Made by a program: the position numbers and the translations under genes
Part shown: piece by piece, positions 9,902 through 25,673 of the stretch
Layout of the letters: every line of letters begins with the position of its first letter
Numbering within the stretch: the stretch's first letter is position 1
Notes under the pieces: generated by a model
The model's input: only the letters and a program-made list of their open reading frames with translations
Databases searched by the model: none
What the model was told of the DNA's origin: nothing
Source of the DNA: an uncultured Clostridia bacterium
Lineage (GTDB): Bacteria > Bacillota > DTU025 > MWDF01
DNA: 64,000 nucleotides
NCBI GenBank assembly: GCA_964545975.1
Contig: CAZJHY010000001.1
Span: forward strand, 24,094 to 88,093
Direction of reading: 5' to 3'

Positions 9902-9940
9902 AGCCCCCTTGCCAGAGAGTTTATGGTAGGGGGCTTCTTG
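9902..9940. terminator. Putative bidirectional intrinsic terminator between convergent genes
   Basis: AGCCCCCT-18 nt loop-AGGGGGCT perfect 8-bp stem, with T-rich flanks on both strands. Confidence 0.4.
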
Positions 9941-9991
9941 ATATTATGAGTATGCTCTGTAGCATGGATATCGAGTTTCTGGCAAAGGTCA

Positions 9992-10414: not shown

Positions 10415-10437
10415 ACGCAGCCCTCCCTGTATGCTGC

Positions 10438-10971
10438 CTATAGCAGCTCCGCTATCTTACCGTCAAGGTCTTCGGGCTTTACCGTGGGTGAGAACCTTCC
10501 AACGACCTTGCCGTTTCTATCCACGAGGAATTTCGTGAAGTTCCATCGGATGTCGTCTCCCAGCACTGTCTGCTTGAGCTCCTCTAGCCGTTTTTTGAAC
10601 CTAGGCATATCCTCGTTCTCAAGTTCCGCCCTCGCCTCTTTCTTGAGGAAGGTTATCAATGGTTCGGCATTTTGCCCGTTAACATCTATCTTGGAGAAAG
10701 TCCTGAACTTGGTGCCGAAATTGAGCTGGCAGAACTCAACTATCTCGTCATTTGTCCCCGGAGCCTGGTTCAGGAATTGGTTGCTGGGGAAGTCGAGCAC
10801 CTCAAAGCCCCTGTCGCGGTATTTCTCATACAGGGCTTCAAGCCCCTTATATTGAGGTGTGAAGCCGCATTTGGTTGCGGTGTTAACTATTAGAAGAACT
10901 TTTCCCTTGTAATCGGACATGGACAAATCGTTGTACTTTGCGTCCTTGACCTTGAAATCATATATCGTCAT
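10438..10971 (-). CDS. Glutathione peroxidase family (thiol peroxidase, BsaA/Gpx-like)
   Basis: 'GKVLLIVNTATKCGFTPQYKGLEALYEKY', 'FPSNQF' motifs. Confidence 0.85.
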   Translation of the reverse strand: MTIYDFKVKDAKYNDLSMSDYKGKVLLIVNTATKCGFTPQYKGLEALYEKYRDRGFEVLDFPSNQFLNQAPGTNDEIVEFCQLNFGTKFRTFSKIDVNGQNAEPLITFLKKEARAELENEDMPRFKKRLEELKQTVLGDDIRWNFTKFLVDRNGKVVGRFSPTVKPEDLDGKIAELL

Positions 10972-10985
10972 GGGATAACCTCCTC

Positions 10986-10999
10986 GATGTTAACATGTT
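10986..10999. promoter_or_regulatory. Overlapping perfect palindromes ATGTTAACAT and TAACATGTTA in the peroxidase/OhrR promoter region
   Basis: Seen directly in the sequence. Lies 15-28 bp upstream of the gpx start codon (minus strand). Confidence 0.35.
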
Positions 11000-11009
11000 A
11001 GACGATTAA

Positions 11010-11024
11010 ATTGTATCAAATACA
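11010..11024. promoter_or_regulatory. Inverted repeat TTGTAT-caa-ATACAA, a candidate MarR/OhrR operator
   Basis: Perfect 6-bp arms in an AT-rich region, with 'AAATTGTAT' context reminiscent of OhrR boxes. The similarity to OhrR boxes is by eye only. Confidence 0.35.
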
Positions 11025-11065
11025 AACGGCATGTCAACATCATCCAAGGGGCTCTCCTTGATTTT

Positions 11066-11713
11066 CTACTTGTTCTGCCCGTAAGTCCTGCCGAGGGTGG
11101 AGACCAATGCCTTCACCTGTTCGTCAGTTAGTGAGGATGCCCTGCCTATTTGCGAGGCGTGTATATAGCACGAGCACATCTTCTCCAGAAGCTCGCACCT
11201 TTCAAGGGCCTTCTCAGGCGTGTCAGCGACGCAGACTGACCCGTGATTGGACATTATTGCTGCATTCTTGCTTCCTAGCGCCTTCGCGACGTTCTTTGCT
11301 AGGTCGTCGCTTCCAGACATAGCATAATCCGCTACCTCTACAGCGCCTCCGAAGCTGAAAGCGCATATATCAGTTATGACCGGAAGAGGCATCCTTGCTA
11401 CGCCAAGGGCTATCGCCATGGGTGAATGAACATGAACGACGGCTTTAACCTCAGGCCTGGCAATGTAGATCTCCCTGTGCAGCATGCTTTCTACCGAGGG
11501 CTTAAGCTTTGATGAGGAATACAGTGTCGCCAGATCCAGCTCTACTATCTGCTCAGGGGAAAGCGCCTCATAAGGTATGCCGCTGGGGGTTATCAGCATC
11601 CCGGTTCCTGATTCATTCCTGCAGCTGACATTCCCTCCGGTGCCTATAGTAAGCCCCATTTCCATCATCTTGATGCCGGTCTGGATAATTCTTCTGTTAA
11701 GCTGCTCGTTCAT
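11066..11713 (-). CDS. Class II aldolase/adducin-family protein (FucA/AraD/OtnC-like)
   Basis: 'GLTIGTGGNVSCR', 'HVHSPMAIALG', 'SNHGSVCVADT'. Transcribed divergently from the RLP operon. Confidence 0.8.
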   Translation of the reverse strand: MNEQLNRRIIQTGIKMMEMGLTIGTGGNVSCRNESGTGMLITPSGIPYEALSPEQIVELDLATLYSSSKLKPSVESMLHREIYIARPEVKAVVHVHSPMAIALGVARMPLPVITDICAFSFGGAVEVADYAMSGSDDLAKNVAKALGSKNAAIMSNHGSVCVADTPEKALERCELLEKMCSCYIHASQIGRASSLTDEQVKALVSTLGRTYGQNK

Positions 11714-11893
11714 CTTTCTCCTCCATCTGTGGCTGTTGTATTGCCAGTACGAAATTATACAGTCAATTGCATATTAATATAGCACAATAACCTAACCAGG
11801 TGCGAAGGAGCACGCTGTTTTTAATGTGAGTCAAATACATTGCAAAAGCACAGCATAAAAGCGGTATTGCTTGCATCAGCAGGACACTGCTTC

Positions 11894-11910
11894 CTGAATA
11901 CTGGATTCAG
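11894..11910. promoter_or_regulatory. Palindrome CTGAAT-actgg-ATTCAG flanked by direct repeats GCTTCCTGA, a candidate operator in the divergent intergenic region
   Basis: Seen directly: GCTTCCTGAATACTGGATTCAGCTTCCTGA. Confidence 0.35.
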
Positions 11911-12151
11911 CTTCCTGACGCTTGTCTAGGCAGTTTGATGTATATTTTCCTCCACATAAATGATATTCTATATTAAAGCGTTTCCGGATAGTTGTATATT
12001 ATTGGTACAATCTCCATTAGTATACAATCCAGAAAGGGGTGTTCGGCAGGCAGCTAACCACGGTAGTACCAAAATTACTAGCGACCAATCGCAAGTGGGA
12101 CAAGAAATCAATCTCCAGCGAGAAGTATAAGCAATTAGGGGAGGGAATCTT

Positions 12152-13162
12152 GTGAAGAGAACATTGTTAATCGCGGTTGTACTAGTCATGGCACTAACCA
12201 TCGTAACCGGCACTTTCGCAGCGACTACGCCTCTGTTGGTATCGGGCGGCGGTCTTAAGACGACCACTACCGTCAAGGCCAACTCGAAGTATCTCATCGC
12301 TTGCATCGTTAAGAACTCCACCAATCCTTACATGATCAAGCAGCTTGACGGCTTCAAAGCCGCCGGCGCATTCATGGGCTTCGACGCCGTCGCACTGGCT
12401 CCCGCCAAGGCCGACAACATCGAAGAGCAGGTCAAGATAATCGAAGACCTCATCCAGAAGGGCGTCAAGGGCCTCGTCATCCATCCTTCCGACTCCAACG
12501 GCATAGTCCCGATAGTCGAGAAGGCCATGTCGCTCGGCATCCCCGTGGTCGTAATAGGTACCCCGGCGAATACCGACAAGATATTCTTCCGCACCGGCAT
12601 GGACTATACCGACTCTGGCCGCAAGATCACCGAAGCTGCCATCCAGAAGATGGGCGGCAAGGGCAACGTCATAATACTTGAGGGCCCGCCCCAGGCGATC
12701 AACGCCAAGGAAAGGCTCAACGGCATGCTCGAAACTATAGCCAAGTACCCCGGCGTAAAGGTGCTTGACTCCCAGACCGCAAACTTCAACAGGCTCAACG
12801 CCCTCCAGGTCATGGAGAACCTCCTTCAGAAGCACAAGGACGTGCAGGGAGTCTTCGCGGCCAACGACGAGATGGCCCTCGGCGCGATCCAGGCTCTTGA
12901 AGCCGCCGGCAGGAAGAACGTGGTAGTCTCCGGCGTCGACGGAAGCAAGGACGCCTCGCAGGCGGTCCTCGAAGGCAGGCTCACAGTGACCTCGAATGCA
13001 GACCCCTATTCCAGCTCCTGGTGCGCCGCAGCATACATCGTGAAGTACTTGAACGACGGCACCATGCCGCCCTCCAAGTTCATCCCGTATCCCGCTGAAG
13101 TCGCCATCATCGACAAGAGCAACGTTCAGAACTACATCAACAACGACGCGTGGTGGAAGTAG
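12152..13162 (+). CDS. Sugar ABC transporter substrate-binding protein (PBP type 1, RbsB-like)
   Basis: Signal peptide 'MKRTLLIAVVLVMALTIVTGTFA'; ribose-binding-protein-like core. Confidence 0.8.
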   Translation: MKRTLLIAVVLVMALTIVTGTFAATTPLLVSGGGLKTTTTVKANSKYLIACIVKNSTNPYMIKQLDGFKAAGAFMGFDAVALAPAKADNIEEQVKIIEDLIQKGVKGLVIHPSDSNGIVPIVEKAMSLGIPVVVIGTPANTDKIFFRTGMDYTDSGRKITEAAIQKMGGKGNVIILEGPPQAINAKERLNGMLETIAKYPGVKVLDSQTANFNRLNALQVMENLLQKHKDVQGVFAANDEMALGAIQALEAAGRKNVVVSGVDGSKDASQAVLEGRLTVTSNADPYSSSWCAAAYIVKYLNDGTMPPSKFIPYPAEVAIIDKSNVQNYINNDAWWK

Positions 13163-13180
13163 TCTCATAGAAGTCCTGCT

Positions 13181-13210
13181 ATGGAGCCCTGTCGCAAGAC
13201 GGGGCTCCAT
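13181..13210 (+). promoter_or_regulatory. GC-rich intercistronic hairpin after the substrate-binding-protein gene
   Basis: ATGGAGCCC-12 nt-GGGCTCCAT, a perfect 9-bp stem. The ORF-track start ATG 13181 lies inside this stem. Confidence 0.45.
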
Positions 13211-13231
13211 GCACCCAAGGGGGCGTTATTT

Positions 13232-14752
13232 TTGGAGATAGTACCTATCCTCGAAGCGAGGAACATCAGCAAGGAGTTCCCGGGCGTAAAGGCGTTGGAT
13301 GAAGTATCCATACAGGTAAGGCCCGGCGAGGTCCATGTACTGATAGGAGAGAACGGGGCCGGAAAGAGCACGCTGTCCAAGATACTCATGGGAGTGTATA
13401 CCAGCGACAAGGGCGAGATCCTGTTCGATGGTAAGCCCGCCCACATTAGGAACCCTCATGACGCAAGGGCATTAGGCATATGCGGTGTCCATCAGGAGTT
13501 CATGCTTGTACCCTGGATGAACGTCGCACAGAACATCTTCATCAACAGAGAGCCCAGGATTTGGCCGGGGCTTCCCTTCATAGACCACAAGAAGATGCAC
13601 GAGGACAGCAGGAAGCTGCTTTCCTCCTTCAACGTGAACATCAACACCAAGCAGCCGGTGAAATACCTGGACACCGCGCTCCAGCAGATGGTGGAGATAG
13701 TAAAGGCGCTATCTACGAACCCCAAGGTCCTGATACTTGACGAACCGACTGCAGTCCTCACGGACAGGGAGGTCAACAGCCTCTTCGCCCATATAGAGGA
13801 GCTGAGAAGCCGAGGGGTTGCGATCATATACATATCGCACAGGCTTCCTGAGATCAGAAGGATAGGCGACAGGGTCACGGTCCTAAGAGACGGGAAGTAT
13901 GTAGCAACGGTTGACATCAAGGACACCCCCGACGAGGAGCTCATCAAGATGATGGTGGGCAGGAGCGTTTCGCAGCTTTATACCAGAAACCGCCAGGTTC
14001 CCGGGAAAGAGGCCCTGAGGCTTGAGAATTTCAGCGTGAAGGGCGGACCGCAGAATGTCGACCTGGTGCTGCACTACGGAGAGATCATTGGGCTTGCGGG
14101 CCTGATTGGTTCAGGGCGCACCGAGCTTGTCAGGGGCATCATGGGAATTGACCAGCAGACAGGCGGTTCCCTTTACATCGATGGCAACAAAGTCACGGTC
14201 GGAAGCCCTGACAAGGCGATAGGACTGGGGCTGGGGCTTCTGCCTGAGGACCGCAAGAGGTATGGCCTCGCCCTTAAGACGAACATCGCCTGGAATACCA
14301 TAATGGCGAGCCTCAAGCGGGAGTTCCCCAAGGGAGTAGTAAGGGAGCGCAAGGTGCGCGACATCGCCCAGGGCTATGTTAAGCAGCTGAAAATCGCCAC
14401 AGACTCGGTATCTAAGGTGGTGGGCTTCCTAAGCGGAGGCAACCAGCAGAAGGTTGTCGTCGCCAAGTGGATCAACACCAAGGCCAAGATCCTCATCTTC
14501 GACGAACCTACAAGGGGCATCGACGTGGGGGCCAAGGCAGAGGTGCACGCCCTCATGGACAAACTGGTGGCCGAAGGAAACGCGATCATAATGATTTCCT
14601 CCGACCTGCCGGAAGTCCTCGGGATGAGCGACCGCGTCTACACGATATTCCAGTGCCGTTCCATGGGGGACTGCTGCTTCCAGGAGGCGAACCAGCAGAG
14701 AATCGGCTCCCTTATGCTGGGAGTGGGGGTGAAGACAGATGCAAACCAGTAA
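13232..14752 (+). CDS. Sugar ABC transporter ATP-binding protein with duplicated ATPase domains (RbsA/MglA/XylG family)
   Basis: 'LEARNISKEFPGVKALDEVS', Walker A 'GENGAGKST'; second cassette 'LSGGNQQKVVVAKW'. TTG 13232 with a GGGGG RBS is preferred over ATG 13181, which sits in the hairpin. Confidence 0.8.
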   Translation: MEIVPILEARNISKEFPGVKALDEVSIQVRPGEVHVLIGENGAGKSTLSKILMGVYTSDKGEILFDGKPAHIRNPHDARALGICGVHQEFMLVPWMNVAQNIFINREPRIWPGLPFIDHKKMHEDSRKLLSSFNVNINTKQPVKYLDTALQQMVEIVKALSTNPKVLILDEPTAVLTDREVNSLFAHIEELRSRGVAIIYISHRLPEIRRIGDRVTVLRDGKYVATVDIKDTPDEELIKMMVGRSVSQLYTRNRQVPGKEALRLENFSVKGGPQNVDLVLHYGEIIGLAGLIGSGRTELVRGIMGIDQQTGGSLYIDGNKVTVGSPDKAIGLGLGLLPEDRKRYGLALKTNIAWNTIMASLKREFPKGVVRERKVRDIAQGYVKQLKIATDSVSKVVGFLSGGNQQKVVVAKWINTKAKILIFDEPTRGIDVGAKAEVHALMDKLVAEGNAIIMISSDLPEVLGMSDRVYTIFQCRSMGDCCFQEANQQRIGSLMLGVGVKTDANQ

Positions 14753-15704
14753 GCTCATGGGCTTTTTGAGGAAGGTCCCGCCGGCGACATACATCATACT
14801 GCTCATGATAGCCATATACGGCATCGCCGCGCCCGGCTTCTTCACCCTTGGAAACCTCGAGAACGTCGGAAACCAGGCGGCCCCCCTTCTCATCGTCGCC
14901 ATAGGTGTGACCATGGTCATCATGACGGAGGGTACAGACCTTTCGATCGGTTATGTGATGGGCATGGTCGGAGTCGTTGTATCGATTATGCTTAGGGCGA
15001 AAATCTGGATAGGCTGGGCGTTCCTTGCCGGCATCGCGGTAGGGGTGTTCTGCGGCTTCATAAACGGCGTCGCAGTCGCAAAGCTCAAGCTTCCTCCGTT
15101 CATTGCTACGCTTGGTACCGGAAACGTCATATTCGGAATAGGCCTCGTCATAACCGAAGGATACTCCATACAGGCACTTGATCCTGCGCTGCTTTTTCTG
15201 GCAAGCGGCAAGGTGTTCGGAATAAGCATGCCGATACTGATTGCCACGGTGGTCTTCGGGTTATGCTGGGTACTCATGAACTACACGCCGTTCGGGCGCA
15301 ACATAGTCTCTCTCGGAGGCAACTCCGAGGCGCTTAGAGGCGTTGGCCTTAACGTCGGGAAAGCCTCCATATCGGTATACATGATGTGTGGCTTCCTTGC
15401 GGCAATAGGAGGCCTCATAGTGGCGTCAAGGACAGGCTCAGGCTATTCGGCGGCTGCCATGGGATGGGAGTTCGACGCCATCGGAGCCAGTATAATCGGC
15501 GGTACATCCTTCGAGGAGGGCAATGGATCCATAAGCAGGACCGTAATTGGTGTCGCGCTCATATCGATACTCAGAAACGGCCTTAATGTCGTGGGCGTGC
15601 CGAACATGTACCAGTACGCGCTCATCGGCGCCATAGTGCTGACGGCCATAATCCTGGACGTTCGCTTCAGGCAGGCCGCGAAGGGAGGCGTCAAGAGAGT
15701 ATGA
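14739..15704 (+). CDS. Sugar ABC transporter permease (RbsC/branched monosaccharide family)
   Basis: Polytopic; 'GGTSFEEGNGSISRTVIG' conserved permease region. Confidence 0.8.
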   Translation: MQTSKLMGFLRKVPPATYIILLMIAIYGIAAPGFFTLGNLENVGNQAAPLLIVAIGVTMVIMTEGTDLSIGYVMGMVGVVVSIMLRAKIWIGWAFLAGIAVGVFCGFINGVAVAKLKLPPFIATLGTGNVIFGIGLVITEGYSIQALDPALLFLASGKVFGISMPILIATVVFGLCWVLMNYTPFGRNIVSLGGNSEALRGVGLNVGKASISVYMMCGFLAAIGGLIVASRTGSGYSAAAMGWEFDAIGASIIGGTSFEEGNGSISRTVIGVALISILRNGLNVVGVPNMYQYALIGAIVLTAIILDVRFRQAAKGGVKRV

Positions 15705-16696
15705 ACGAAGGTTCAAGGATGAAGGACACCCCCAAGGCGGTCGCAATCGTAAACGACAGGCTCAAGGCAAGGGAGGCCATAGCTCCCCTCTTCAGGCTCA
15801 CGTTCCTGATAGTCCTCATGATCGCACTTTCCATACTCAGCGAGGACTTCTTCACATGGAGCAACCTAATTAACGTTCTCAGGCAGTCGACTTTCCTGAT
15901 AGTAATCGGCCTCGGGCTCACAGGGGTGCTGCTTACCGGAGGCATCGACCTGTCCGTAGGCGGTGTGCTCGCATTCGTGGGCTGCGCGACTGGACAGATG
16001 ATGAGATCCGGCGTTCCGCTTTATCTTGCAGTGCCAATCGGTCTTCTAATCGGAGCGGGAGTCGGATGCTTCAACGGTTTCATGGTGGGGTACATCAAGC
16101 TTCCTCCGTTTGTGGCCACTTACGGTTCCAAGTGGATATCCGAGGGCATGGCGCTGCTTCTTATGCAGGGGCAGGTCATCTACGGCTTCCCGAGGGTGTA
16201 CCGCTGGATCGGCATCGGCTACATAGGACCCATACCAGTGCCCATCATAATTGCTGCCATCCTTGCGGTAATAATGAACTTCCTGTTCGTGAAGACCGTA
16301 TTCGGCAGGCAGGTATATGCACTGGGCGCCAACAAGGAAGCAGCATTCTACTCGGGCATCAAAGTCAAGAAGAACATCATGGTGGTATACACCCTTGCTG
16401 GCCTCATGGCGGGCATTGCCGGCCTTCTGATGCTTGCAAGGCTTGACGCCGCCGAGGTGAACATGGGAGAGGCCCTGCAGCTGCAGTCCCTCGCCGCGGT
16501 CATCATCGGGGGTGCATCCCTTCGCGGAGGCGAGGGCAGCATATTCGGCACGATAATTGGCGCCATAACCCTTACGCTGGTCGTAAACGGGCTTAACCTG
16601 CTTGGCGTGCGCTCTTTGTGGCACTCAGTGGTGCTCGGCGGCGTCATCCTGGCATCCGTGATAATGGACCTGCGCATGAAGAAGCTGGCGCAATAA
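15701..16696 (+). CDS. Sugar ABC transporter permease, second subunit
   Basis: Paralogue of the previous permease ('GGASLRGGEGSIFGTIIG'); ATGA start/stop overlap. Confidence 0.8.
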   Translation: MNEGSRMKDTPKAVAIVNDRLKAREAIAPLFRLTFLIVLMIALSILSEDFFTWSNLINVLRQSTFLIVIGLGLTGVLLTGGIDLSVGGVLAFVGCATGQMMRSGVPLYLAVPIGLLIGAGVGCFNGFMVGYIKLPPFVATYGSKWISEGMALLLMQGQVIYGFPRVYRWIGIGYIGPIPVPIIIAAILAVIMNFLFVKTVFGRQVYALGANKEAAFYSGIKVKKNIMVVYTLAGLMAGIAGLLMLARLDAAEVNMGEALQLQSLAAVIIGGASLRGGEGSIFGTIIGAITLTLVVNGLNLLGVRSLWHSVVLGGVILASVIMDLRMKKLAQ

Positions 16697-16727
16697 GGAT
16701 TAGCAGAAAGAAAAAGGAGGAACACCA

Positions 16728-17537
16728 ATGGCCAACCTTACGATCAGACCCATAAACACCGGTTACGCGGAAACCTACAAGAAGCAGTACCAGTACCATC
16801 ATTCTACCCACAAGTACCACAACGTCGACGACGGAAAGCTTCTTCTGCCCTGCATGGCATTCCTTATCGAGGGCGGAGACAAGCTCGTGCTGGTAGACAC
16901 CGGCATGTCCAACACCGAGATAGCCAACAAGTATCATCATCCGGGTTCGTACCAGCCTGACGGCTTTGCGATACATGAGCAGCTGGCGAAGCTGGGCATC
17001 AAGTGCGAGGACATCGACATTGTCATCTTCACGCACATGCACTGGGACCACATGCACAACATGGAGAAGTTCGTAAACGCCAGGTTCATCGCCCACAAGA
17101 AGGAATGGGAGTTCTGCCAGAACCCCATCCCGCTGTACTACAAATCATACGAGCATCCCAAGCTCGGCATAAAGGCTCCCTTCACTGGCCTTAAGATCGA
17201 GACCGTAGAGGGCGAGCAGGAGATAGTCCCCGGCATAAGGGTGTTCGAGAGCTTCGGGCATTCGCCGGGCCACATGTCCGTGGAAGTCGACTGCGAGGAC
17301 GGATCCTACATCCTCTGCGGCGATGCGGTATTCATCTACGACAACCTTAAGCCCGTGCCGGACATGTTCTATGAGATTACTCCCCCGGCCAGGTATGCCA
17401 ACATCGTCGAGTGCTGGAACAGCATAGTCGAGATGAAGCATAGGGCCAAGGAGCAGCGCTTCATACTGCCCTCCCATGAGCCTGAGATAGAGGAGCTCGC
17501 GAAGAAGTACGGAACTTTCCCGATACCCAAGAAGTAA
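16728..17537 (+). CDS. MBL-fold metallohydrolase, lactonase-like
   Basis: 'IVIFTHMHWDHMHN' (HxHxDH) and 'FGHSPGH'. Strong AAGGAGG RBS. Confidence 0.75.
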   Translation: MANLTIRPINTGYAETYKKQYQYHHSTHKYHNVDDGKLLLPCMAFLIEGGDKLVLVDTGMSNTEIANKYHHPGSYQPDGFAIHEQLAKLGIKCEDIDIVIFTHMHWDHMHNMEKFVNARFIAHKKEWEFCQNPIPLYYKSYEHPKLGIKAPFTGLKIETVEGEQEIVPGIRVFESFGHSPGHMSVEVDCEDGSYILCGDAVFIYDNLKPVPDMFYEITPPARYANIVECWNSIVEMKHRAKEQRFILPSHEPEIEELAKKYGTFPIPKK

Positions 17538-17619
17538 CATCACACCGATTGGGGGTGCGGCCGGGAGGCAGGTCCAAGGGGGCGCGGGCCTCCGAAGACA
17601 GCCAACCCGGCCTTGTCAT

Positions 17620-18843
17620 ATGAAGACTATCGCAGTGATAACCTCGCTGGACACGAAGGGGAAAGAGACCCTCTATATAAAGGATGCGATCGAGAGGTTC
17701 GGCTCGAAGGCTCTCATCATAGACGTAGGGGTCAAGGAGCCGCCATATTTCACGCCTGATATCGCAAGGCACGAGGTGGCCGCCGCCGCCGGCATCGACT
17801 GGGATACGGTGAAGGACAAGGAGAAAAGGGTGAGGATAAGCACCATGACCTCAGGCCTTGAGGTGCTTATACCCAAGCTATATGCCGAGGGGAAGCTTTC
17901 GGCCGTGTTCTCGATGGGAGGCCTTCAGAACACAACGATGGGAACATCGGCGATGAAGACCCTGCCGCTCGGGGTGCCTAAGCTCATGCTTTCCACGATG
18001 GCGTCCAGCAACAGGCCTTTCGGTCCGTTCGTGGGAACCAAGGACATGACCCTCATGCACTCGGTGGGCGACATCCTAGGGGTAAACCCCGTCACCAAGG
18101 CCGTGATGGATAACGCCGTCGGAGCCATCGTGGGGATGGCGGAGCACGCCGGAAACAGGGTGCAGAAAACTGACAGGATCCTTGTGGGTGCCACTATGCT
18201 CGGCGTAACGAACGACGGAGTGAGCCGCGCGGTATCCTACCTCGAGGAGGCAGGCTACGACGTGGTCACCTTCCATGCGAACGGTGCGGGAGGACCGGCC
18301 ATGGAGGAGCTCATAGGACAGGACACGATAGACGCCGCGATGGATCTTACGCTGCATGAGATAGACGCTGAATTCTTCGGGGGGCACTGTTCGGGGGCGA
18401 CCAACAGGCTCCTTATGGCCGCCGAGAAGGGGATACCCCAGGTTGTTTCGCTTGGTGCCTCCGACGTCATAGACTATGAGGTCGTGGACCTCGACAAGGT
18501 AAGGGAGTATGGAAGGCGCAAGTTCGTCTATCAGCACCCCACCATCCAGCACATAAAGCTCATAGAGGAAGAGGCGCACAAGGTCGGGACGGTAATCGGG
18601 GAGAGGCTCTCAAAGGCCAAGGGTCCCCTAACCCTCGTCATACCTAGGGGAGGCTTCCACCAGAGCAGCTACAAAGGCGGTCCCATATGGGATCCTGCCA
18701 TCGACGAGATAATCATAGGACACATACTAAGCAGGATTGCGCCTTCCACAAGGGTGGTAGAGACCGCAGCCCATATCAACGAGCCCGCCTTCAGCAGGGT
18801 GGCGGCCGATGAGATGATTAAGCTTCTGAAGGCCATGCGCTAA
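17620..18843 (+). CDS. UPF0261 (Tm-1-like N-terminal domain) family protein of unknown function
   Basis: 'MKTIAVITSLDTKGKE', 'GGLQNTTMGTSAMKTLPLGVPKLMLSTMASSN', 'MTLMHSVGDILGVN', matching the UPF0261 pattern from memory. Confidence 0.65.
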   Translation: MKTIAVITSLDTKGKETLYIKDAIERFGSKALIIDVGVKEPPYFTPDIARHEVAAAAGIDWDTVKDKEKRVRISTMTSGLEVLIPKLYAEGKLSAVFSMGGLQNTTMGTSAMKTLPLGVPKLMLSTMASSNRPFGPFVGTKDMTLMHSVGDILGVNPVTKAVMDNAVGAIVGMAEHAGNRVQKTDRILVGATMLGVTNDGVSRAVSYLEEAGYDVVTFHANGAGGPAMEELIGQDTIDAAMDLTLHEIDAEFFGGHCSGATNRLLMAAEKGIPQVVSLGASDVIDYEVVDLDKVREYGRRKFVYQHPTIQHIKLIEEEAHKVGTVIGERLSKAKGPLTLVIPRGGFHQSSYKGGPIWDPAIDEIIIGHILSRIAPSTRVVETAAHINEPAFSRVAADEMIKLLKAMR

Positions 18844-18875
18844 GCAGGGCCAGAAGCCTCACAAGGAGGATTCCG

Positions 18876-20132
18876 ATGTTCTACGGACTGCCTTTCGACA
18901 ACCCCGAGTCCATTTATGGCAGGGATTACGTTCTGGGCACCTATTTCGTGACCGGCGTCACAGGAGACGATGCGCTTAATAAGCTGGGCATGTTTGCAGT
19001 CGGCCAGTCCACCGGCACGTGGATGCCGGTGCCCGGCATAACCAGGCAGATGGTGGAGGATCATCAGGGAAGAGTCGTCGGATGCTATCCGGTGCCCGCC
19101 CAGGAGCCCGGCGCCTACGTTCTTAGGGTGGCGTTTCCCTACAGCAACATAGGCGGGTCCATCTCGATGCTGCTTACCACGCTTGCGGGAAACGACGCTT
19201 CGACTGCGCTGTGCGCGAAGCTCATAGACGTGGAGCTTGTCGGCAAGGCGAAGTCGGCCTTCCACGGTCCGCACTTCGGAATAGACGGGGTGAGGAAGCT
19301 CACGGGAGTCTACGACAGGCCCATAGTCATGAATATGATCAAGCCTTGCACGGGCTTTCCGGCTACGGCAGGGGCGGAGTTCTTCTACGCGTCCGGATCA
19401 GGCGGCGTAGACATAATAAAAGATGACGAGCTTATGGGCAACACCAGCTTCAATTCCGTCGCCGACAGGGTGAGGGAGTATGGTAAGGCTCAAGCGAGAA
19501 TCGGAGGAGAGAGGGGCAAGGCCCCTATATACCTTCCCAATGTGACCGACAGGCACGATAAAATGCGCGACAACATCAAGGCGGCGATAGACGGCGGAGC
19601 GAAGGGCGTCATGGTCAACTTCGTCTTCACCGGACTCGACAGCCTTGCCGCGCTTACATCGGAGTTCGGCGACAAGGTGATGTTCCTCGCTCATGCGGCA
19701 GGAGTTGGCGTCATGACCGGTTATCCGCAGGGCTTAAGCACCTCGCTTCTTCTAGGAAGGCTCGGAAGGCTGGCAGGCGCGGACGCGGTGGTCACCCTTT
19801 ATCCTCTCGGCATGGGAGGAGACGGCTTCCAGGAGCTTCAGATGACGGTGCAGAAGCACAGGCTGCCTCTGGGAGATGTCAAGCAAGCCTTGACCGTGGT
19901 CGGAGGAGGCGTCACGCCGCTTACCGTACCGTTTGCGGTGAAGAGCTTCGGCAAGGACATAATCATCGCCGTTGGCGGTGGCATCCAGGGCCACCCGGAC
20001 GGGGCGACGGCAGGCGCAAAGGCCATGATGGCTGCGGTGGATGCGACCATGAAGGGCGTAAGCCTGGAAGACGCGGTTAAGGACAGCCCGGAGCTCGGAA
20101 GGGCGATAACCAGATGGGGCAAGAAGGCTTAA
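18876..20132 (+). CDS. RuBisCO large-subunit-like protein (form IV RLP)
   Basis: 'GQSTGTWMPV' (RuBisCO STGTWTTVWT-like), 'MIKPCTGF' (KPK region, K175 equivalent kept, K177 changed to Cys), 'GGVDIIKDDE' (carbamyl-Lys/KDDE motif), 'AVGGGIQGHPDG' (loop-6/GGG region). 418 aa, no small subunit. AAGGAGG RBS. Confidence 0.8.
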   Translation: MFYGLPFDNPESIYGRDYVLGTYFVTGVTGDDALNKLGMFAVGQSTGTWMPVPGITRQMVEDHQGRVVGCYPVPAQEPGAYVLRVAFPYSNIGGSISMLLTTLAGNDASTALCAKLIDVELVGKAKSAFHGPHFGIDGVRKLTGVYDRPIVMNMIKPCTGFPATAGAEFFYASGSGGVDIIKDDELMGNTSFNSVADRVREYGKAQARIGGERGKAPIYLPNVTDRHDKMRDNIKAAIDGGAKGVMVNFVFTGLDSLAALTSEFGDKVMFLAHAAGVGVMTGYPQGLSTSLLLGRLGRLAGADAVVTLYPLGMGGDGFQELQMTVQKHRLPLGDVKQALTVVGGGVTPLTVPFAVKSFGKDIIIAVGGGIQGHPDGATAGAKAMMAAVDATMKGVSLEDAVKDSPELGRAITRWGKKA

Positions 20133-20169
20133 GGGCCGCCCGAATGATGACCGTATGGAGGTAAAGCAG

Positions 20170-20793
20170 ATGGAAGATCTTATCATGAGCATAAAAAGGG
20201 ACGTGGAGCTCGCCTGCAGGAGGGCGTACACGAGGGGAATACAGACCGGAAGCGGCGGAAACGTCAGCGCAAGGATACCGGGCACGGACCATATGATAGT
20301 GAAGCCAAGCAAGGTGTCGCTCATCGAATGCGACCCCGAGACGCTTATCATAACCGACTTCGACGGAAACTTGGTGCAGGGCTCTCTTCCTCCTACGAGG
20401 GAGGCGGTGCTTCACGGCTGGCTGTATAAGAAGTTCGGCAAGATCGGAGCGGTGGTTCACACCCATTCGCCCTGGGCTATATCCTGGTCCTTCACCAGGA
20501 GGGACCTTCCCAATATTACCATGCATACTCAGCTTAAGCTGGGATGCCCCATCCCGGTCAGGTTCTTCTCCAGCCCCAAGGGGGTTCTGAAGGAGGAGAT
20601 GCCAGAAGTCTACGGCCTTTTCGAGAAGGAACCGAACCTCGCCGCCTTCATACTCGGTGCGCACGGTGTGGTCGCAGTCGGCGACAATATCATAGAGGCC
20701 GAGCACACGGCGGAGCTCATAGAGGAGACGGCACAGATAGCATACCTGCACGAGATGGGATTGAAGCTCGGGATGTTCCCCGAGGGCAGATAA
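20170..20793 (+). CDS. Class II aldolase/adducin-family protein
   Basis: 'GIQTGSGGNVSARIPG', 'AVVHTHSPWAISWS'. ATG 20170 with GGAGG RBS preferred over 20155. Confidence 0.8.
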   Translation: MEDLIMSIKRDVELACRRAYTRGIQTGSGGNVSARIPGTDHMIVKPSKVSLIECDPETLIITDFDGNLVQGSLPPTREAVLHGWLYKKFGKIGAVVHTHSPWAISWSFTRRDLPNITMHTQLKLGCPIPVRFFSSPKGVLKEEMPEVYGLFEKEPNLAAFILGAHGVVAVGDNIIEAEHTAELIEETAQIAYLHEMGLKLGMFPEGR

Positions 20794-20822
20794 GACGAAG
20801 ACAATCCGAACGGAGTGATCAT

Positions 20823-21284
20823 ATGTACAGGAAGATGGTAATAGGCTGCGACGAGGCGGCCTGTGAGCTGAAAAACGCCCTTATCGAGGTCCTTAAGAAG
20901 AAGGGAATTGAGTATGAGGACGTCGGAGTGCCGGATGCAAGCGACAAGACCTATTATCCCCTGGTGGCAGAGAAGGTGGCCGAGGCGATAATAGAAAGCG
21001 GCTATGAGAAGCACGGGATGCTCCTCTGCGGAACGGGCATCGGCATGGCCATATCCGCGAACAAGCACCCCGGGGTATTTGCCGCTGTATGCCACGACCA
21101 GTATTCTACCGAGAGGGCGAAGCTGAGCAACAACTGCAACGTCATCTGCATGGGGGCAAGGGTCATAGGGCCAGAGCTTGCCAAGAAGAACCTGGAGCAA
21201 TGGCTTGAGCTGACGTTCAAGGACGGCTCCTCGACCCCTAAGGTGGAGGCTGTGAAGGATATCGAGAAGAGGCATATGAAATGA
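20823..21284 (+). CDS. RpiB/LacAB-family sugar-phosphate isomerase
   Basis: 'MKIGCDEAA', 'LLCGTGIGMAISANKHPGVFAA', 'NCNVICMGARVIG'. The upstream part of track ORF 20544 is an artefactual N-terminal extension. Confidence 0.8.
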   Translation: MYRKMVIGCDEAACELKNALIEVLKKKGIEYEDVGVPDASDKTYYPLVAEKVAEAIIESGYEKHGMLLCGTGIGMAISANKHPGVFAAVCHDQYSTERAKLSNNCNVICMGARVIGPELAKKNLEQWLELTFKDGSSTPKVEAVKDIEKRHMK

Positions 21285-22075
21285 GGAGCCCGCTTCTTGT
21301 CGGCACGAACCTCAAGATGTACAAGGGCGTGAAGGAGACGCTGGAGTTCCTTTCGCGCCTTGCGGGAAACGTCAGCCACATAGGCAGCGAAGACATGACG
21401 CTCTTCGTCATACCCTCCTACCTTGCCCTTCATGCGGCATGCGGGTCTGATGCGCACAGCAGGATACTCCTTGGCGCGCAGAATCTGCACTGGGAGGACT
21501 CCGGGCAGTTCACCGGTGAGATATCCCCCATGATGCTCAAGGAGATAGGCATAGATATCGCTGAGATCGGCCACTCGGAACGAAGGCAGCTTTTCGGTGA
21601 GACGGACGTGACAGTGGGGCTTAAGGCCAAGGCAGCGCTCAGGCACGGCATGAGGGCCCTGGTATGCATAGGGGAGACCGCAGACGACAAGGCGTCGGGC
21701 ATTACCTATGAGAAGCTGAGGATGCAGGTGAAGGTGGCCTTAAAGGGGATTTCTGCGGATGAGCTCGAGGGGCTTTGGGTAGCATACGAGCCGGTATGGG
21801 CCATCGGGATCCACGGGGTCCCGGCTGAGCCCGGATACGCCGAGAAGAGCCACAGGATGATAAAAGACGTGCTGGAAGAGCTTTACCCTAATAAGGGCGC
21901 AGGCGTTCCCGTGCTGTACGGCGGAAGCGTCAACATGGAAAACGCCATGGAGCTCATCGTCCAGCCGAGCATAGACGGCTTGTTCATAGGAAGGACCGCT
22001 TGGGACGCGGACAGGTTCGCGTCGCTGATCAAGGATGTCCTCCCCTTGTGGAAGGCCAAGGCTGAGAGAGAATAG
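21281..22075 (+). CDS. Triose-phosphate-isomerase (TIM) family protein, divergent paralogue, possibly a tetrulose-phosphate isomerase
   Basis: 'LVGTNLKMYKG', 'AQNLHWEDSGQFTGEISPMMLKEIG', 'IGHSERRQ', 'YEPVWAIG', 'YGGSV'. ATGA overlap with the upstream gene. Confidence 0.7.
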   Translation: MRSPLLVGTNLKMYKGVKETLEFLSRLAGNVSHIGSEDMTLFVIPSYLALHAACGSDAHSRILLGAQNLHWEDSGQFTGEISPMMLKEIGIDIAEIGHSERRQLFGETDVTVGLKAKAALRHGMRALVCIGETADDKASGITYEKLRMQVKVALKGISADELEGLWVAYEPVWAIGIHGVPAEPGYAEKSHRMIKDVLEELYPNKGAGVPVLYGGSVNMENAMELIVQPSIDGLFIGRTAWDADRFASLIKDVLPLWKAKAERE

Positions 22076-22104
22076 GGCAAGGCTTACGAAGGCGGTGTGA
22101 TGCA

Positions 22105-22776
22105 ATGGCGGACATGGTCATGGAGGCGAAAAGGCAGTTAATAGAGATCGGAAGGCAGATAGCTGCCAAGGGACTTGTGATAGGACCCGGCGGAAATACC
22201 AGCTTAAGGGCAGGCGCCCTCATGGTGATATCCGCCAGCGGCTCTTCATTCGAGTGCTCCGACGAGAGCGACTACGTCGCGATAGACATAGAGACAGGAA
22301 AACAGGCCGACGGCGGCAAGAGGCCGTCTTCCGAAGTGCTGATGCACCTTGAGTGCTACAGGAGGCGCCCGGATGTAAACGCTGTAGTCCATACCCATCC
22401 GACGTGGTCGACATCTGTAGCAAGCTCGGGCACCAAGATGCCCCCGATGTTCCCGGATTACGTCGTGTTCGTGGGCAAGCCCGCGACCCTGGATTACGTG
22501 ATACCGACGACGAAGCTTCTGGCCGATGCCGTGGCCGAAGTCATAGGGGAGCATAATGTGGTGCTCATGAGCAATCACGGGGTGCTTGCCGTCGCAGGCG
22601 ACCTCAAGATGGCGCTATTAAGGGTGGAGCTGGCAGAGGAGAACGCAAGGATGCTCGTGATAGCAAACTCCCTCGGCAAGCCGCGATCCCTTACGGATGC
22701 CGAAGTCCAGGCGATATTTGACCTGGAGAGCGAGAAGTACAGGCAGAGGCTTCTGAAAAACGAGGGCGGGAAGTAG
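22105..22776 (+). CDS. Class II aldolase/adducin-family protein
   Basis: 'GLVIGPGGNTSLRAG', 'AVVHTHPTWSTS', 'SNHGVLAVAGD'. Confidence 0.8.
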   Translation: MADMVMEAKRQLIEIGRQIAAKGLVIGPGGNTSLRAGALMVISASGSSFECSDESDYVAIDIETGKQADGGKRPSSEVLMHLECYRRRPDVNAVVHTHPTWSTSVASSGTKMPPMFPDYVVFVGKPATLDYVIPTTKLLADAVAEVIGEHNVVLMSNHGVLAVAGDLKMALLRVELAEENARMLVIANSLGKPRSLTDAEVQAIFDLESEKYRQRLLKNEGGK

Positions 22777-22798
22777 TCCTAAAAAGGAGGACGCACCA

Positions 22799-24271
22799 TT
22801 GTCCGACAGGCTTTTCATGGGGATAGACGTGGGCACGGGCGGAGCCAGGGTCATAGTCTGCGACGAGTACGGGTTGCCCCTGGCGGAAAGCTCGAGGCCG
22901 TTTGCCGCAGGTGCCGGCGCATCTGACATGCCCCAGGGCTGGCATCAGCAGTCGCCCGCAGCCTGGTGGGACGCGACTTCCGCATGTATAAGGCAGGTCA
23001 TGGGCTCACCCGGACTCGGCGGAAATCCTGGCAGGGTGTTCTCTGTTTCCGTCACATCCACATCAGGTACTGTGATCCCGCTTAGGGAGGATTGCGAACC
23101 GCTCTGGGATGCGGTCATGTACAACGACAGCAGGTCGTCCGCGCAGGCGGAAAGGGCGAACGAGGCGCTTAAGGAATTATGCGGGAAGCTCGCCTACAGG
23201 TTCGACACATCCTTCGGGCTTCCGAAGATGCTATGGTTCATGGACAGCAAGCCTGAGCTGTTCAGAAGGACCAGATTCTTCGTCCACGCTGGCGATTATA
23301 TTATCGGGAAGCTCTGCGGCTGCTTCGGTTTCACCGACTATTCCAACTCGCTGAAGTCTGGATACGACATCGATGAGCTGATATGGCCGAAGGAGATAGA
23401 GGAGAAACTGGGCGTCCCGGCGTCCAAACTGCCGGAAGTGCTCGCCCCGGGCACGGTAGTCGGGAAGGTCTGCGCCGCCTGCTCCGCAGAGACGGGCCTT
23501 CCGGAAAGCACCAACGTCGCGCTGGGCATGACGGACGGCTGCGCCTCGCAGATTGCATCGGGTGCCGCGTCCTTAGGCGACTGGAACACCACGATCGGCA
23601 CAACGCTTGTAATCAAGGGGGTCACCGAGAGGCTCCTCTTCGACCCGAAGGGAAGGATATACAGCCACAGGCATCCCGACGGGCACTGGATGCCAGGCGG
23701 GGCCAGCAACGTCGGCGGCGACTGCATAAGAAGCAACTTCCGCGACGATGAGCTGGATACGCTGAACGCGTCCGTGCGCCCTGAGAAGCCGACAGGCATG
23801 CTGGTGTACCCTCTGGAGAAGAAGGGCGAGAGGTTCCCGAACAGAGATCCTTTGGCAGAGGGGTTCATAATGGGAAGCCCATCAGGAAGGCCCGAGCTCT
23901 ATCAGGCCTACCTTGAGGGTGTTGCGCTGGTGGAGAAGATGTCATACGAGATGCTTCAGAGCTTGGGGGCGGCAATCGGTGACACGATCTTTGCGGCGGG
24001 AGGCGCCACGAAAAGCGAGCCATGGCTCAAGGTAAGGTCGAATATGCTCGACCGGCGCATTGCAGTCCCGGAGATTGCAGGAGGATTCATGGGAGCCGCC
24101 ATACTAGCAGCTTCCCTCTCCCATTGGGGCTCGCTCGGTGAGGCTGCCAAAAACATGGTAAAAATTTCCAAGACGATATGCCCGGACCCTGCCGCTGTCG
24201 ATGCCTATAAGGATAAGTACGGGCAGTTCATAAGAGAGATGGGAAGCAGGGGATATACCCTGGAGGGATGA
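22799..24271 (+). CDS. FGGY-family carbohydrate kinase
   Basis: 'FMGIDVGTGGARVIV' N-terminal actin-like motif; about 490 aa; TTG start with AAGGAGG RBS. Confidence 0.8.
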   Translation: MSDRLFMGIDVGTGGARVIVCDEYGLPLAESSRPFAAGAGASDMPQGWHQQSPAAWWDATSACIRQVMGSPGLGGNPGRVFSVSVTSTSGTVIPLREDCEPLWDAVMYNDSRSSAQAERANEALKELCGKLAYRFDTSFGLPKMLWFMDSKPELFRRTRFFVHAGDYIIGKLCGCFGFTDYSNSLKSGYDIDELIWPKEIEEKLGVPASKLPEVLAPGTVVGKVCAACSAETGLPESTNVALGMTDGCASQIASGAASLGDWNTTIGTTLVIKGVTERLLFDPKGRIYSHRHPDGHWMPGGASNVGGDCIRSNFRDDELDTLNASVRPEKPTGMLVYPLEKKGERFPNRDPLAEGFIMGSPSGRPELYQAYLEGVALVEKMSYEMLQSLGAAIGDTIFAAGGATKSEPWLKVRSNMLDRRIAVPEIAGGFMGAAILAASLSHWGSLGEAAKNMVKISKTICPDPAAVDAYKDKYGQFIREMGSRGYTLEG

Positions 24272-24275
24272 TGAT

Positions 24276-25673
24276 ATGAGCATTTACAAGGCCTGCGACA
24301 TAAGGGGAGTCTACCCTTCGTCGCTCGACGAGAAGACGTCATACGATATAGGAGCGGCTTTGGGGGAGATGCTCGGCCCTGTAAGCATGCTCGTCGCAGG
24401 CGACGTGAGGGTCAGCACGCCGCCTTTGAAGCAAAGCCTTATAAACGGCCTTGTGGACGCCGGATGCGAAGTAGTGGACATCGGCATGGCCCCGACCCCG
24501 GCCTTCTACTACGCGCTTCATAAGCTGGGCACCGAGTCGGGCGTGACGGTGACGGCATCCCATAATCCGGCCAAGTACAACGGCTTCAAGATAGCGCCGC
24601 ACGGGCAGCCCATGACTGAAGACGTGATGGACGACCTGAGGAAGATGGTCGAAGCTGGAGGATTCAAGCCATATGGGCAAGGGAGCGTAAGGAAGGCTGA
24701 GGTCATCGAGGATTACAAGAGATTCGTGCTTGATAAGATAGGAGAGCTAACGGGAACGAAGTGCAGCGCTCATGGTTCGAGTAATGCCCTCAAAGCCGTG
24801 GTGGACTGCGGCAACGGCTGCTACAGCACGATAGCCCCTGAAGTTCTAAGGCAAGCTGGCATCGCGGTTGAGGAGCTCTATTGCTGGGAGGATGGAACTT
24901 TCCCTAACAGGGAGCCAAACCCAGCTGTAGCTGAGAATCTCGAGGCTTTATGCGGCAAGGTCAGAGATACGGGGGCAGACCTTGGCATTGCCTTCGACGG
25001 GGACGGTGACAGGGTGGTCTTCGTGGACGAGCTGGGCAAAGTGGTCCCTAGCGACAATGCGATAGCACTTTTCGCCGGCTTCCTCCTTAAGAATCACCCC
25101 GGCTCGAAGGTGGTTTTCGACATCAAGTGCTCAAGCCTTGTGTCGGATTCGATCAAGGCGGCGGGCGGCATTCCAGTGATGGAGAAGTCAGGCCACGCTT
25201 ACATCAAGAACAACCTGCTGAGAAACGGCGCGGTTTTCGCAGGCGAGATCAGCGGGCACTTCTTCTTCCAGGTGCTCAAGGGGGATGACGGGCTGTTCGC
25301 GGCTCTTCTGATGGCCGAGATCATGATGTCGGAGGGCAGAAGCCTGGGGAAGATGGTGGAGTCGCAGCCGAAGTACTTCACTACAAGAGACTTCAGGATA
25401 CCGTTCTCGGGGAGCACGGCCGAGCTGTTCGGAAGGCTCAAAGCGCGCCTTGAGGCAAGCGGAGGCGCAAACCTGTCGTACCTGGACGGCATAAGGGCGG
25501 AGTTTTCTGAAGGCTGGGGGCTTATAAGGGCATCAGTCACTGAGCCACTGGTTACGCTGAGGTTCGAGGGGAAGTCGTTGGAGAGCCTTGATAGGATAAG
25601 GGATAGCTTCCTTGCTGCAGATGAGGACTTGCTTGATGCCGTAAGGGAGGTTTGGGCAAACCATCTTCCTTAG
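24276..25673 (+). CDS. Phosphohexomutase-family phosphomutase (PGM/PMM-like)
   Basis: Active-site 'VTASHNPAKYNGFK', metal loop 'FDGDGDR'. Confidence 0.8.
   Translation: MSIYKACDIRGVYPSSLDEKTSYDIGAALGEMLGPVSMLVAGDVRVSTPPLKQSLINGLVDAGCEVVDIGMAPTPAFYYALHKLGTESGVTVTASHNPAKYNGFKIAPHGQPMTEDVMDDLRKMVEAGGFKPYGQGSVRKAEVIEDYKRFVLDKIGELTGTKCSAHGSSNALKAVVDCGNGCYSTIAPEVLRQAGIAVEELYCWEDGTFPNREPNPAVAENLEALCGKVRDTGADLGIAFDGDGDRVVFVDELGKVVPSDNAIALFAGFLLKNHPGSKVVFDIKCSSLVSDSIKAAGGIPVMEKSGHAYIKNNLLRNGAVFAGEISGHFFFQVLKGDDGLFAALLMAEIMMSEGRSLGKMVESQPKYFTTRDFRIPFSGSTAELFGRLKARLEASGGANLSYLDGIRAEFSEGWGLIRASVTEPLVTLRFEGKSLESLDRIRDSFLAADEDLLDAVREVWANHLP

Follow-up and report, generated by a model that had tools for sequence, protein, structure and literature searches.

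The UPF0261 family gained its first catalytic activity, as its authors present it, with MarK (Saro_1862) of Novosphingobium aromaticivorans, an ATP-dependent kinase that yields ADP as product and whose substrates are acetovanillone and similar aromatic compounds (Hall et al. JBC 2025; PMC12624787). The structure of the enzyme has been solved (PDB 9MPY); its ATP and substrate sites lie ≈25 Å apart, Gly195 and His219 hydrogen-bond the oxygen being phosphorylated, an E16K change that introduces K16 gives ≈1600-fold higher activity, and the homodimer needs no partner for activity (PMC12624787). Tm-1 of tomato works by ATP-bridged binding rather than catalysis, with its K20 contacting the ATP α-phosphate (PMC12624787). 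UPF0261 proteins are also known to co-evolve with TBST (PEP_hydrolase-like) proteins (PMC5028733). Here we describe a UPF0261 gene in a 64,000-nucleotide stretch of DNA from an uncultured Clostridia bacterium (contig CAZJHY010000001.1), hereafter the window, in which it directly precedes a gene for a RuBisCO-like protein (RLP). The two genes are as follows.

17620-18843, plus strand: UPF0261 (Tm-1-like, MarK-like) two-domain protein, candidate ATP-dependent small-molecule kinase (Pfam, NCBIfam)
18876-20132, plus strand: form-IV RLP of an uncharacterized clade (Pfam RuBisCO_large, E 2.5e-39)

We consider it probable, if by a modest degree, that the UPF0261 protein is a stand-alone ATP-dependent small-molecule kinase of a conserved carbohydrate-catabolic cluster, in which it feeds the RLP and aldolase steps. 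Its open reading frame (ORF) begins with ATG and encodes a full-length UPF0261 protein of 407 residues. Both Pfam halves of the family score far above their cutoffs of 27 bits (PF06792, residues 2-176, E 4e-54, 183.6 bits; PF23189, residues 187-402, E 2e-61, 207.5 bits), and its NCBIfam NF002674 score likewise exceeds the curated threshold (397 bits versus 335), bearing out the family assignment made in a first-pass annotation of the sequence. That annotation had called the family one of no assigned function, a description that MarK has made outdated since 2025 (PMC12624787). The family is very large (>2,000 homologues scored). The N terminus of the window protein (MKTIAV...) is in register with those of 30 homologues in the alignment, and its closest named relatives among the matches listed are Bacillota metagenome-assembled genomes. 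Pfam finds UPF0261 domains only in the protein, with no fused TBST domain, and tblastn for PF09370 (TBST) gave no match anywhere in the 64-kb window. The 82-nt spacer upstream of the gene (17538-17619) holds no clear Shine-Dalgarno sequence near the ATG, its sole GGGAGG lying ≈50 nt upstream.

The best match among solved structures is MarK (9mpy, E 1e-43, residues 4-395), ahead of tomato Tm-1. We built an AlphaFold2 model with 31 homologues as input (mean predicted local distance difference test score 91.3), and it shows two α/β/α sandwich domains, as in MarK and Tm-1. The only full-length Foldseek matches to this model are 9mpy and the entries 3wrw, 3wrx, and 3wry, with template modeling (TM) scores of 0.64 to 0.85 and E values of ≈1e-35 (3e-35 for MarK). 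The TM score is 0.85 against ATPγS-bound Tm-1 and 0.64 against MarK, so the model is closer in structure to Tm-1 though MarK is the closer sequence relative. Because of this gap between the two scores, Tm-1 and MarK differ in domain orientation, as would fit a UPF0261 family whose domains move widely against each other.

At only ≈27% identity to MarK, the window protein nonetheless retains the residues linked to phosphoryl transfer. K13, in the sequence D11-T12-K13, aligns with MarK K16 and Tm-1 K20, and the acceptor-oxygen contacts of MarK (Gly195 N and His219) have one-to-one counterparts in G195 and H219. None of the residues D11, K13, G195, and H219 varies among 31 homologues, and all four are conserved across every UPF0261 clade examined. 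The aromatic pocket of MarK, by comparison, is not kept: T196, F283, I285, H304, and H348 correspond to V196, V283, D285, Q305, and S349. Polar residues peculiar to the window clade, all invariant or nearly so, are H246, D285, H311, K313, R/H347, and Q103, where the majority UPF0261 clade has T, N, L, R, S, and G. Because the ATP- and acceptor-site residues are conserved while the aromatic pocket is replaced by clade-specific polar residues, we judge from the alignments that the kinase catalytic apparatus has probably been kept and the substrate pocket rebuilt in a more polar form. The substrate would then presumably be a polar sugar derivative, whereas that of MarK is aromatic. MarK is likewise a stand-alone protein without a TBST partner inside a catabolic operon, but its operon carries the acvCDEF carboxylase and phosphatase genes, in place of which the window has a lactonase-like gene, the RLP, and sugar-phosphate enzymes.

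We examined gene neighborhoods from both sides of the pair, designating loci by L numbers. On the UPF0261 side, a profile scan with one genome per GTDB species gave 80 loci, to which we added nine further contexts of the window's clade from the protein database (L083-L087 and L168-L171; closer or similar homologues); 12 clade members, found via UPF0261 alone and with the window excluded, were independently ascertained. On the RLP side, a metagenome scan gave another 80 loci. The usual partner of UPF0261 is the one that the first-pass annotation had named, a PEP_hydrolase-like (PF09370, TBST) triosephosphate isomerase (TIM) barrel: of 75 genome loci with a called ORF downstream of UPF0261, 39 have it as the next gene, and a TBST gene lies within 6 kb in most loci by tblastn, in line with the reported co-evolution (PMC5028733). 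Among the scan loci, an RLP is directly downstream only in the closest relatives, L001, L002, and L004 (39-47% identity), all without TBST. TBST is absent from all 26 loci assigned to the window clade, and a neighbor-joining tree of 116 UPF0261 sequences, computed without support values and indicative only, gathers the window-type, cluster-linked proteins in one clade apart from the large TBST-linked clade. Tm-1 and the bacterial UPF0261-TBST pairs thus share with the window protein the UPF0261 domain pair and the ATP-binding fold (TM score up to 0.85 to Tm-1), but the window has no fused or adjacent TBST and falls in this separate clade.

Within the clade, an RLP in the cluster is found at 10 of the 12 independent loci (11 of 13 with the window) versus 1 of 77 UPF0261 loci outside the clade (Fisher p = 2e-11, loci found via UPF0261 alone). 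These statistics rule out chance adjacency and confirm the co-occurrence across genomes and phyla that the pairing had been expected to show; the clade's members carry Bacillota, Acidobacteriota, and Proteobacteria labels or are unlabeled metagenome contigs. The RLP gene follows UPF0261 directly (gap ≤100 nt) in six of the 12, lies elsewhere in the cluster in four (that of L171 taken from Pfam annotation), and is absent from two, L085 and L087. Spacing between the two genes is 7 to 44 nt in many loci; in L086, L116, L129, L168, L170, and L171 the RLP gene is separated by one to several genes or lies upstream. From the RLP side, a UPF0261 gene is present in 22 of 80 loci and stands directly upstream of 12 of the 14 RLPs that are ≥46% identical and have upstream DNA, the exceptions being L100 and L119. 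The tightest and most constant neighbor of UPF0261 is not the RLP but the metallo-β-lactamase (MBL)-fold lactonase, encoded directly upstream in 10 of the 12 independent loci. The remaining two, L002 and L004, together with L098, carry a regulator-UPF0261-RLP or aldehyde:ferredoxin oxidoreductase-UPF0261-RLP unit with no MBL gene.

In L002 the aldehyde:ferredoxin oxidoreductase gene (8016-9980) occupies the usual MBL position directly upstream of UPF0261-RLP. We considered it as evidence for an aldonate substrate and dropped it as ambiguous, acid-making and product-aldehyde-consuming roles being equally possible.

The core cluster comprises the MBL-fold hydrolase, UPF0261, the RLP, one class II aldolase-family enzyme, and TIM-like and RpiB-like isomerases, and across the 26 clade loci the MBL, RLP, aldolase, TIM, and RpiB genes appear in varying order. 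Its transporter varies among CUT2 and CUT1 ATP-binding cassette (ABC) systems, a GntP-type permease, and tripartite ATP-independent periplasmic transporters; GntP-type permeases, an acid-sugar transporter family, occur in L168 and, by resemblance only, in L087. The regulator is usually of the GntR/FCD type, and transketolase, transaldolase, Fe-alcohol dehydrogenase, and glycerol-3-phosphate dehydrogenase are occasional extras. L169, which also has genes for glycerol-3-phosphate dehydrogenase, transketolase, and transaldolase, carries a second pair of aldolase II and UPF0261 genes in divergent orientation (14723-18477, minus strand) immediately beyond the downstream end of its main cluster, close to a further MBL-fold gene.

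The association with RLPs extends beyond the window's clade. L110, a human gut metagenome contig, represents a clade in which the RLP, Amidohydro_2, PEP_hydrolase-like, UPF0261, and MBL-fold genes lie in that order (9971-15232) next to a DeoR regulator; its UPF0261 protein is 28% identical to that of the window, TBST and RLP coexist there, and L137, L139, L140, L144, and L161 have the same trio. L124 (4259-11260) has the order MBL, UPF0261, URO-D-like, UPF0261, URO-D-like, RLP, URO-D being a TIM-barrel family. In the L110- and L124-type clades, too, UPF0261 clusters with RLPs and lactonase-like hydrolases; with the window type, this makes at least three arrangements in which the UPF0261-RLP association arose or was retained. 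L108 combines an RLP gene with an MBL gene and a tandem pair of UPF0261 genes; in L024, an MBL gene accompanies two UPF0261 genes, with no RLP detected.

In the window, UPF0261 and the RLP belong to a single co-directional string of genes (12152-25673), whose other members, with one divergent neighbor, are listed here.

12152-13162, plus strand: periplasmic sugar-binding component of a CUT2-type ABC transporter, at the head of the operon (Pfam Peripla_BP_4, E 5e-59)
13181-14752, plus strand: ABC transporter ATPase (Pfam ABC_tran)
14739-15704 and 15701-16696, plus strand: two ABC permeases (Pfam BPD_transp_2)
16728-17537, plus strand: MBL-fold hydrolase resembling lactonases, directly upstream of UPF0261 (Pfam Lactamase_B, E 3e-24)
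20170-20793, plus strand: class II aldolase/adducin-family enzyme AldII_a, core member (Pfam Aldolase_II, E 9e-37)
20823-21284, plus strand: RpiB/LacAB-family sugar-phosphate isomerase (NCBIfam RpiB subfamily, 162 bits versus 135)
21281-22075, plus strand: triosephosphate-isomerase-family enzyme (Pfam TIM, E 1.5e-72; NCBIfam NF000722, 295.8 versus 293)
22105-22776, plus strand: second class II aldolase-family enzyme AldII_b, accessory (Pfam Aldolase_II, E 2e-42)
22799-24271, plus strand: FGGY-family kinase, accessory (Pfam FGGY_N/C; NCBIfam XylB-like, below cutoff)
24276-25673, plus strand: PGM/PMM-family phosphomutase, accessory (Pfam PGM_PMM_I-IV; NCBIfam GlmM/PgmG-like, below cutoff)
11066-11713, minus strand: third class II aldolase-family gene, divergent from the operon and of uncertain membership in the pathway (Pfam Aldolase_II, E 6e-48)

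The MBL-fold hydrolase has an intact HxHxDH metal motif (HMHWDH, residues 103-108), and its best NCBIfam matches, all below cutoff, are 4-pyridoxolactonase and N-acyl homoserine lactone lactonases. AldII_a, whose start was set after the gene call in L081, comes closest among NCBIfam models to the L-ribulose-5-phosphate 4-epimerase subfamily, OtnC, and MtnB, again all below cutoff; orthologues (48-67% identity, 83% in L083) occur in nearly all clade loci. AldII_b is found only in the window's subgroup. AldII_a- and AldII_b-type domains are fused in proteins of 412-428 residues in L084 (12230-13516) and L085 (11221-12459), which suggests that the two enzymes work together. The RpiB-like protein scores 154 against a cutoff of 240 on the D-erythrulose-4-phosphate isomerase model, and its gene is almost always beside the TIM-like gene. 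FGGY and PGM are restricted to the window, L083, L084, and L100. The FGGY, RpiB, TIM, and aldolase II proteins of the window have sub-threshold or generic NCBIfam matches only. As candidate substrates of the pathway, we weighed ascorbate-like enediol lactones, apionate-like branched acids, AI-2/DPD, and 5-deoxyribose-type salvage, among which such matches do not discriminate.

We assigned the RLP gene, which begins 32 nt past UPF0261 behind an AAGGAGG Shine-Dalgarno sequence, by its RuBisCO_large catalytic domain and a weak RuBisCO_large_N match; an RLP directly downstream of UPF0261 had been part of the original description and is confirmed. The protein scores below every NCBIfam cutoff, including those of the MtnW model (266 versus 409), the OiaX model (128 versus 700), and type III RuBisCO. 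Judged by its alignment with solved structures of the RuBisCO family and by what 31 clade members conserve, with positions in form I RuBisCO numbering and window residues in parentheses, it keeps equivalents of T65, W66, N123 (N106), K175 (K156), and H294 (H273), the metal/carbamate triad K201 (K182), D203 (D184), and E204 (E185), and glycine-rich motifs that align with the RuBisCO phosphate-binding loops. An invariant cysteine (C158) stands at K177, and R295, H298, H327, and K334 have no equivalents. The carboxylase positions K334, H327, R295, and E60 hold M, V, A, and G, and by these positions the window RLP is a genuine form-IV protein.

Among proteins with a named activity, the best NCBIfam and PDB match of the RLP is MtnW, the 2,3-diketo-5-methylthiopentyl-1-phosphate (DK-MTP-1-P) enolase, a form-IV protein of similar length that shares the K-D-E Mg2+/carbamate triad. 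The catalytic Lys98 of MtnW (Geobacillus kaustophilus numbering), however, is Asn106 in the window RLP and invariant as such in 31 clade members, and the window context lacks methionine-salvage genes. Because of this replacement, we rule out an MtnW identity, and the DK-MTP-1-P enolase label that JGI gives to homologues is unsupported. The RLP is ≈28% identical to annotated OiaX and falls outside the OiaX/OiaT class. Asn at N123 and K-P-C in place of K175-P-K177 mark this uncharacterized RLP clade, on which the UPF0261 clusters now offer a handle.

RLPs, class II aldolases, TIM, and RpiB enzymes act on phosphorylated sugars. UPF0261 is nonetheless the sole kinase-like gene in clusters L086, L168, L169, and L170, and for this reason we favor UPF0261 as the missing kinase. 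A sugar-derived lactone, or the corresponding acid sugar, would be imported by a transporter that differs between clusters, and the lactone would be opened by the MBL-fold hydrolase encoded directly upstream. The UPF0261 protein would then phosphorylate the ring-opened product, converting ATP to ADP as MarK does. The RLP could process the phospho-intermediate by an enolization-type isomerization or a decarboxylation at its carbamylated-Lys/Mg2+ site, with the class II aldolase-family enzyme also acting on a phospho-intermediate, and the TIM-like and RpiB-like isomerases would channel the products into central metabolism as triose, tetrose, or pentose phosphates. We infer the kinase activity on polar sugar-type substrates, the order of these steps, and the RLP chemistry from the gene content and residues described above. 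Of the roles that had been suggested for a nucleotide-dependent enzyme here, a kinase acting before the RLP is the best supported. The scheme makes a testable prediction, namely that the kinase acts on the product of the adjacent lactonase. The operon and its relatives provide a second, unrelated, and well-defined metabolic setting for UPF0261, the sole characterized member of which acts on lignin-derived aromatics.

Additional support for a kinase comes from the gene that holds the same place beside proteobacterial RLPs. At all five proteobacterial plasmid loci inspected (L172-L176), the RLP gene is followed immediately, with a 4-nt overlap, by a gene of the DUF1537 "four-carbon acid sugar kinase family"; of the five RLPs, one carries the OiaX annotation and four are unnamed. 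In Cupriavidus, the DUF1537 gene follows a dehydrogenase and an α/β-hydrolase. The chemistry of DUF1537/RLP pathways is reportedly that described by Zhang et al. (PNAS 2016) and Carter et al. (Nat Chem Biol 2018). DUF1537 systems (OtnK, and the kinase beside OiaX), which join such a kinase to an RLP or to a class II aldolase-type decarboxylase, share an operon logic with the window, combining a transporter, an acid-sugar-making enzyme, a kinase gene, and a class II aldolase-family enzyme, and the window likewise has a kinase-like gene adjoining an RLP in a transporter-containing catabolic cluster. DUF1537 and UPF0261 have no sequence relationship, so that the likeness is one of analogy only, and the window operon, unlike the DUF1537 systems, has no oxidoreductase. 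No homologue turned up in the window or in L001-L171 when four members of the DUF1537 family (three kinases and a truncated OtnK) served as tblastn queries, and the window UPF0261 protein has no DUF1537 (PF07005/PF17042) Pfam match. On this analogy, the simplest reading is that UPF0261 is a non-homologous replacement for the DUF1537 kinase beside the window's RLP lineage.

FGGY forms a third kinase family in RLP neighborhoods. RLPs 41-42% identical to that of the window usually have a distant FGGY kinase (22-27% identity to the window FGGY) within ≈6 kb and no UPF0261; these distant-FGGY loci are L126, L130-L134, L136, L138, L142, L145, L146, L150, L152, L153, L157-L160, L164, and L166. As a lead only, the joint presence of MBL-fold lactonase and class II aldolase-family genes without an oxidoreductase recalls the UlaG-type ascorbate pathway, in which an MBL-fold lactonase is followed by a decarboxylase and a class II aldolase-family epimerase; the window appears to differ in having no phosphotransferase system, UlaD-like, or UlaE-like genes.

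Kinase-plus-RLP acid-sugar clusters are already known, as are UPF0261 kinases since 2025. We found no paper on a UPF0261-RLP link in the literature searched, and the same literature contains no description of a TBST-less UPF0261 clade with an uncharacterized RLP lineage in a carbohydrate pathway. If the UPF0261 protein is the kinase of this pathway, RLP-paired kinases would belong to two or more unrelated families (DUF1537, UPF0261, and possibly FGGY as a third), and assemblies labeled Bacillota, Acidobacteriota, and other phyla would hold a new carbohydrate-catabolic route.

Several observations weigh against a kinase that feeds the RLP. The known substrates of MarK are aromatic phenols, not sugars; the window operon has no oxidoreductase to supply the carbonyl used by known RLP reactions; its second kinase, FGGY, could make the RLP substrate; and the lactonase label of the upstream hydrolase derives from sub-threshold matches only. 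The two genes are also found apart, since L100 has RLP, RpiB, TIM, FGGY, and PGM without UPF0261, while L085 and L087 have MBL, UPF0261, and AldII without RLP. Because of these last two loci, UPF0261 may feed the aldolase-family enzyme instead of the RLP.

The same exceptions are the starting point for another explanation, that two modules have merged: the UPF0261 kinase would belong to a lactonase-UPF0261-aldolase module, separate from an RLP-RpiB-TIM-(FGGY-PGM) module whose RLP substrate is made by FGGY or arrives in phosphorylated form, and adjacency would reflect the joining of pathways for related substrates. We regard this as unlikely, although it deserves to be taken seriously. The gene sets of L085 and L087, which lack RLP, TIM, and RpiB, and of L100, which lacks UPF0261 and AldII, divide along this line, ≈22 more distant RLPs adjoin a distant FGGY kinase, and in mirror-tree comparisons UPF0261 correlates best with MBL (r = 0.83, versus 0.77 with RLP). 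FGGY and PGM, however, are confined to the four loci named above, and most RLP clusters, L086 and L168-L170 among them, have UPF0261 as their only kinase-like gene. The direct adjacency of UPF0261 and RLP in half of the independent loci, and the UPF0261-RLP units that persist without MBL in L002, L004, and L098, also speak against two separate modules.

A physical partnership, in which the TIM barrel of the RLP has replaced TBST as the docking partner of UPF0261 and receives the phosphoryl group or phospho-intermediate directly at its active site, seems to us doubtful. We give a similarly low likelihood to its broader form, in which UPF0261 is a general phosphoryl-donor module with a TIM-barrel partner (TBST, URO-D-like, or RLP) and here forms a complex that hands a phosphorylated enol or acid sugar to the RLP; such a complex, if real, would mean that the RLP catalyzes a new reaction and that a new lactone-catabolic pathway is widely distributed among uncultured anaerobes. 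The window clade has indeed lost the TBST that is elsewhere so often the next gene and co-evolves with UPF0261, each of the two UPF0261 genes of L124 is followed by a URO-D-like TIM barrel, the spacing to the RLP is tight in many loci, and the distance between the two MarK sites makes large motions or a partner conceivable. Against this, the RLP gene lies apart from or upstream of UPF0261 in six loci (L086, L116, L129, L168, L170, and L171) and is missing from L085 and L087, the L110 type has both TBST and RLP and hence no substitution, and MarK needs no partner. We found no UPF0261-RLP fusion, which had been envisaged, among the 120 best homologues listed per protein, all of ≈400-440 residues. 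Mirror-tree correlation proved non-discriminating as a test of physical interaction, since all operon genes correlate (r = 0.5-0.96, the highest being 0.96 for TIM-RpiB) and UPF0261-RLP does not stand out, being no higher than the values with other operon genes. An obligate physical UPF0261-RLP complex is therefore not supported. Of the functional or physical pairing proposed by the first-pass annotation, the functional part is supported by the conserved co-occurrence, and the physical part is not, given the varying gene order, the exceptions L085, L087, and L100, the presence of both partners in L110, and the closer tie to MBL.

Least probable of all, and in our view very unlikely, is a non-kinase role as an ATP-binding regulator or scaffold like Tm-1 or as an ATP-dependent ligase or carboxylase helper, for although Tm-1 acts by ATP-bridged binding and only one UPF0261 member, with the E16K change, has a measured activity, the window protein natively has the MarK-activating lysine and the acceptor-binding G195 and H219, its gene lies in the middle of a catabolic operon of a type often without another kinase, and GntR/FCD or other regulators are encoded separately.

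Returning to the remainder of the window, the best NCBIfam match of the sugar-binding protein is RbsB-like and below cutoff, and those of the ABC ATPase and permeases are pentose/hexose ABC-like, also all below cutoff; orthologues of the binding protein occur in the same cluster in L001, L084, L088, L169, and others. We treated ORF 12194-13210 (minus strand), which has no family match and overlaps the binding-protein gene, as spurious. The product of the divergent aldolase-family gene (11066-11713) resembles FucA and L-ribulose-5-phosphate 4-epimerase, below cutoffs. Promoter and terminator scans of 11-27 kb gave counts at the shuffle level, and an Rfam scan of the window gave no match. Farther along, acid-sugar-type genes are found at 26599-30506 (a dihydrodipicolinate synthase-family lyase, an NMT1_3 binding protein, and a DctM-type permease) and at 50024-51196 (a galactarate/altronate dehydratase-family gene). 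Consecutive genes at 40483-43924 encode a D-2-hydroxyacid dehydrogenase, a LarA-like protein (Lar_N/LarA_C, 41457-42677) of the nickel-pincer racemase family, and an HMGL-like enzyme, which may form a small 2-hydroxyacid racemization or condensation unit.

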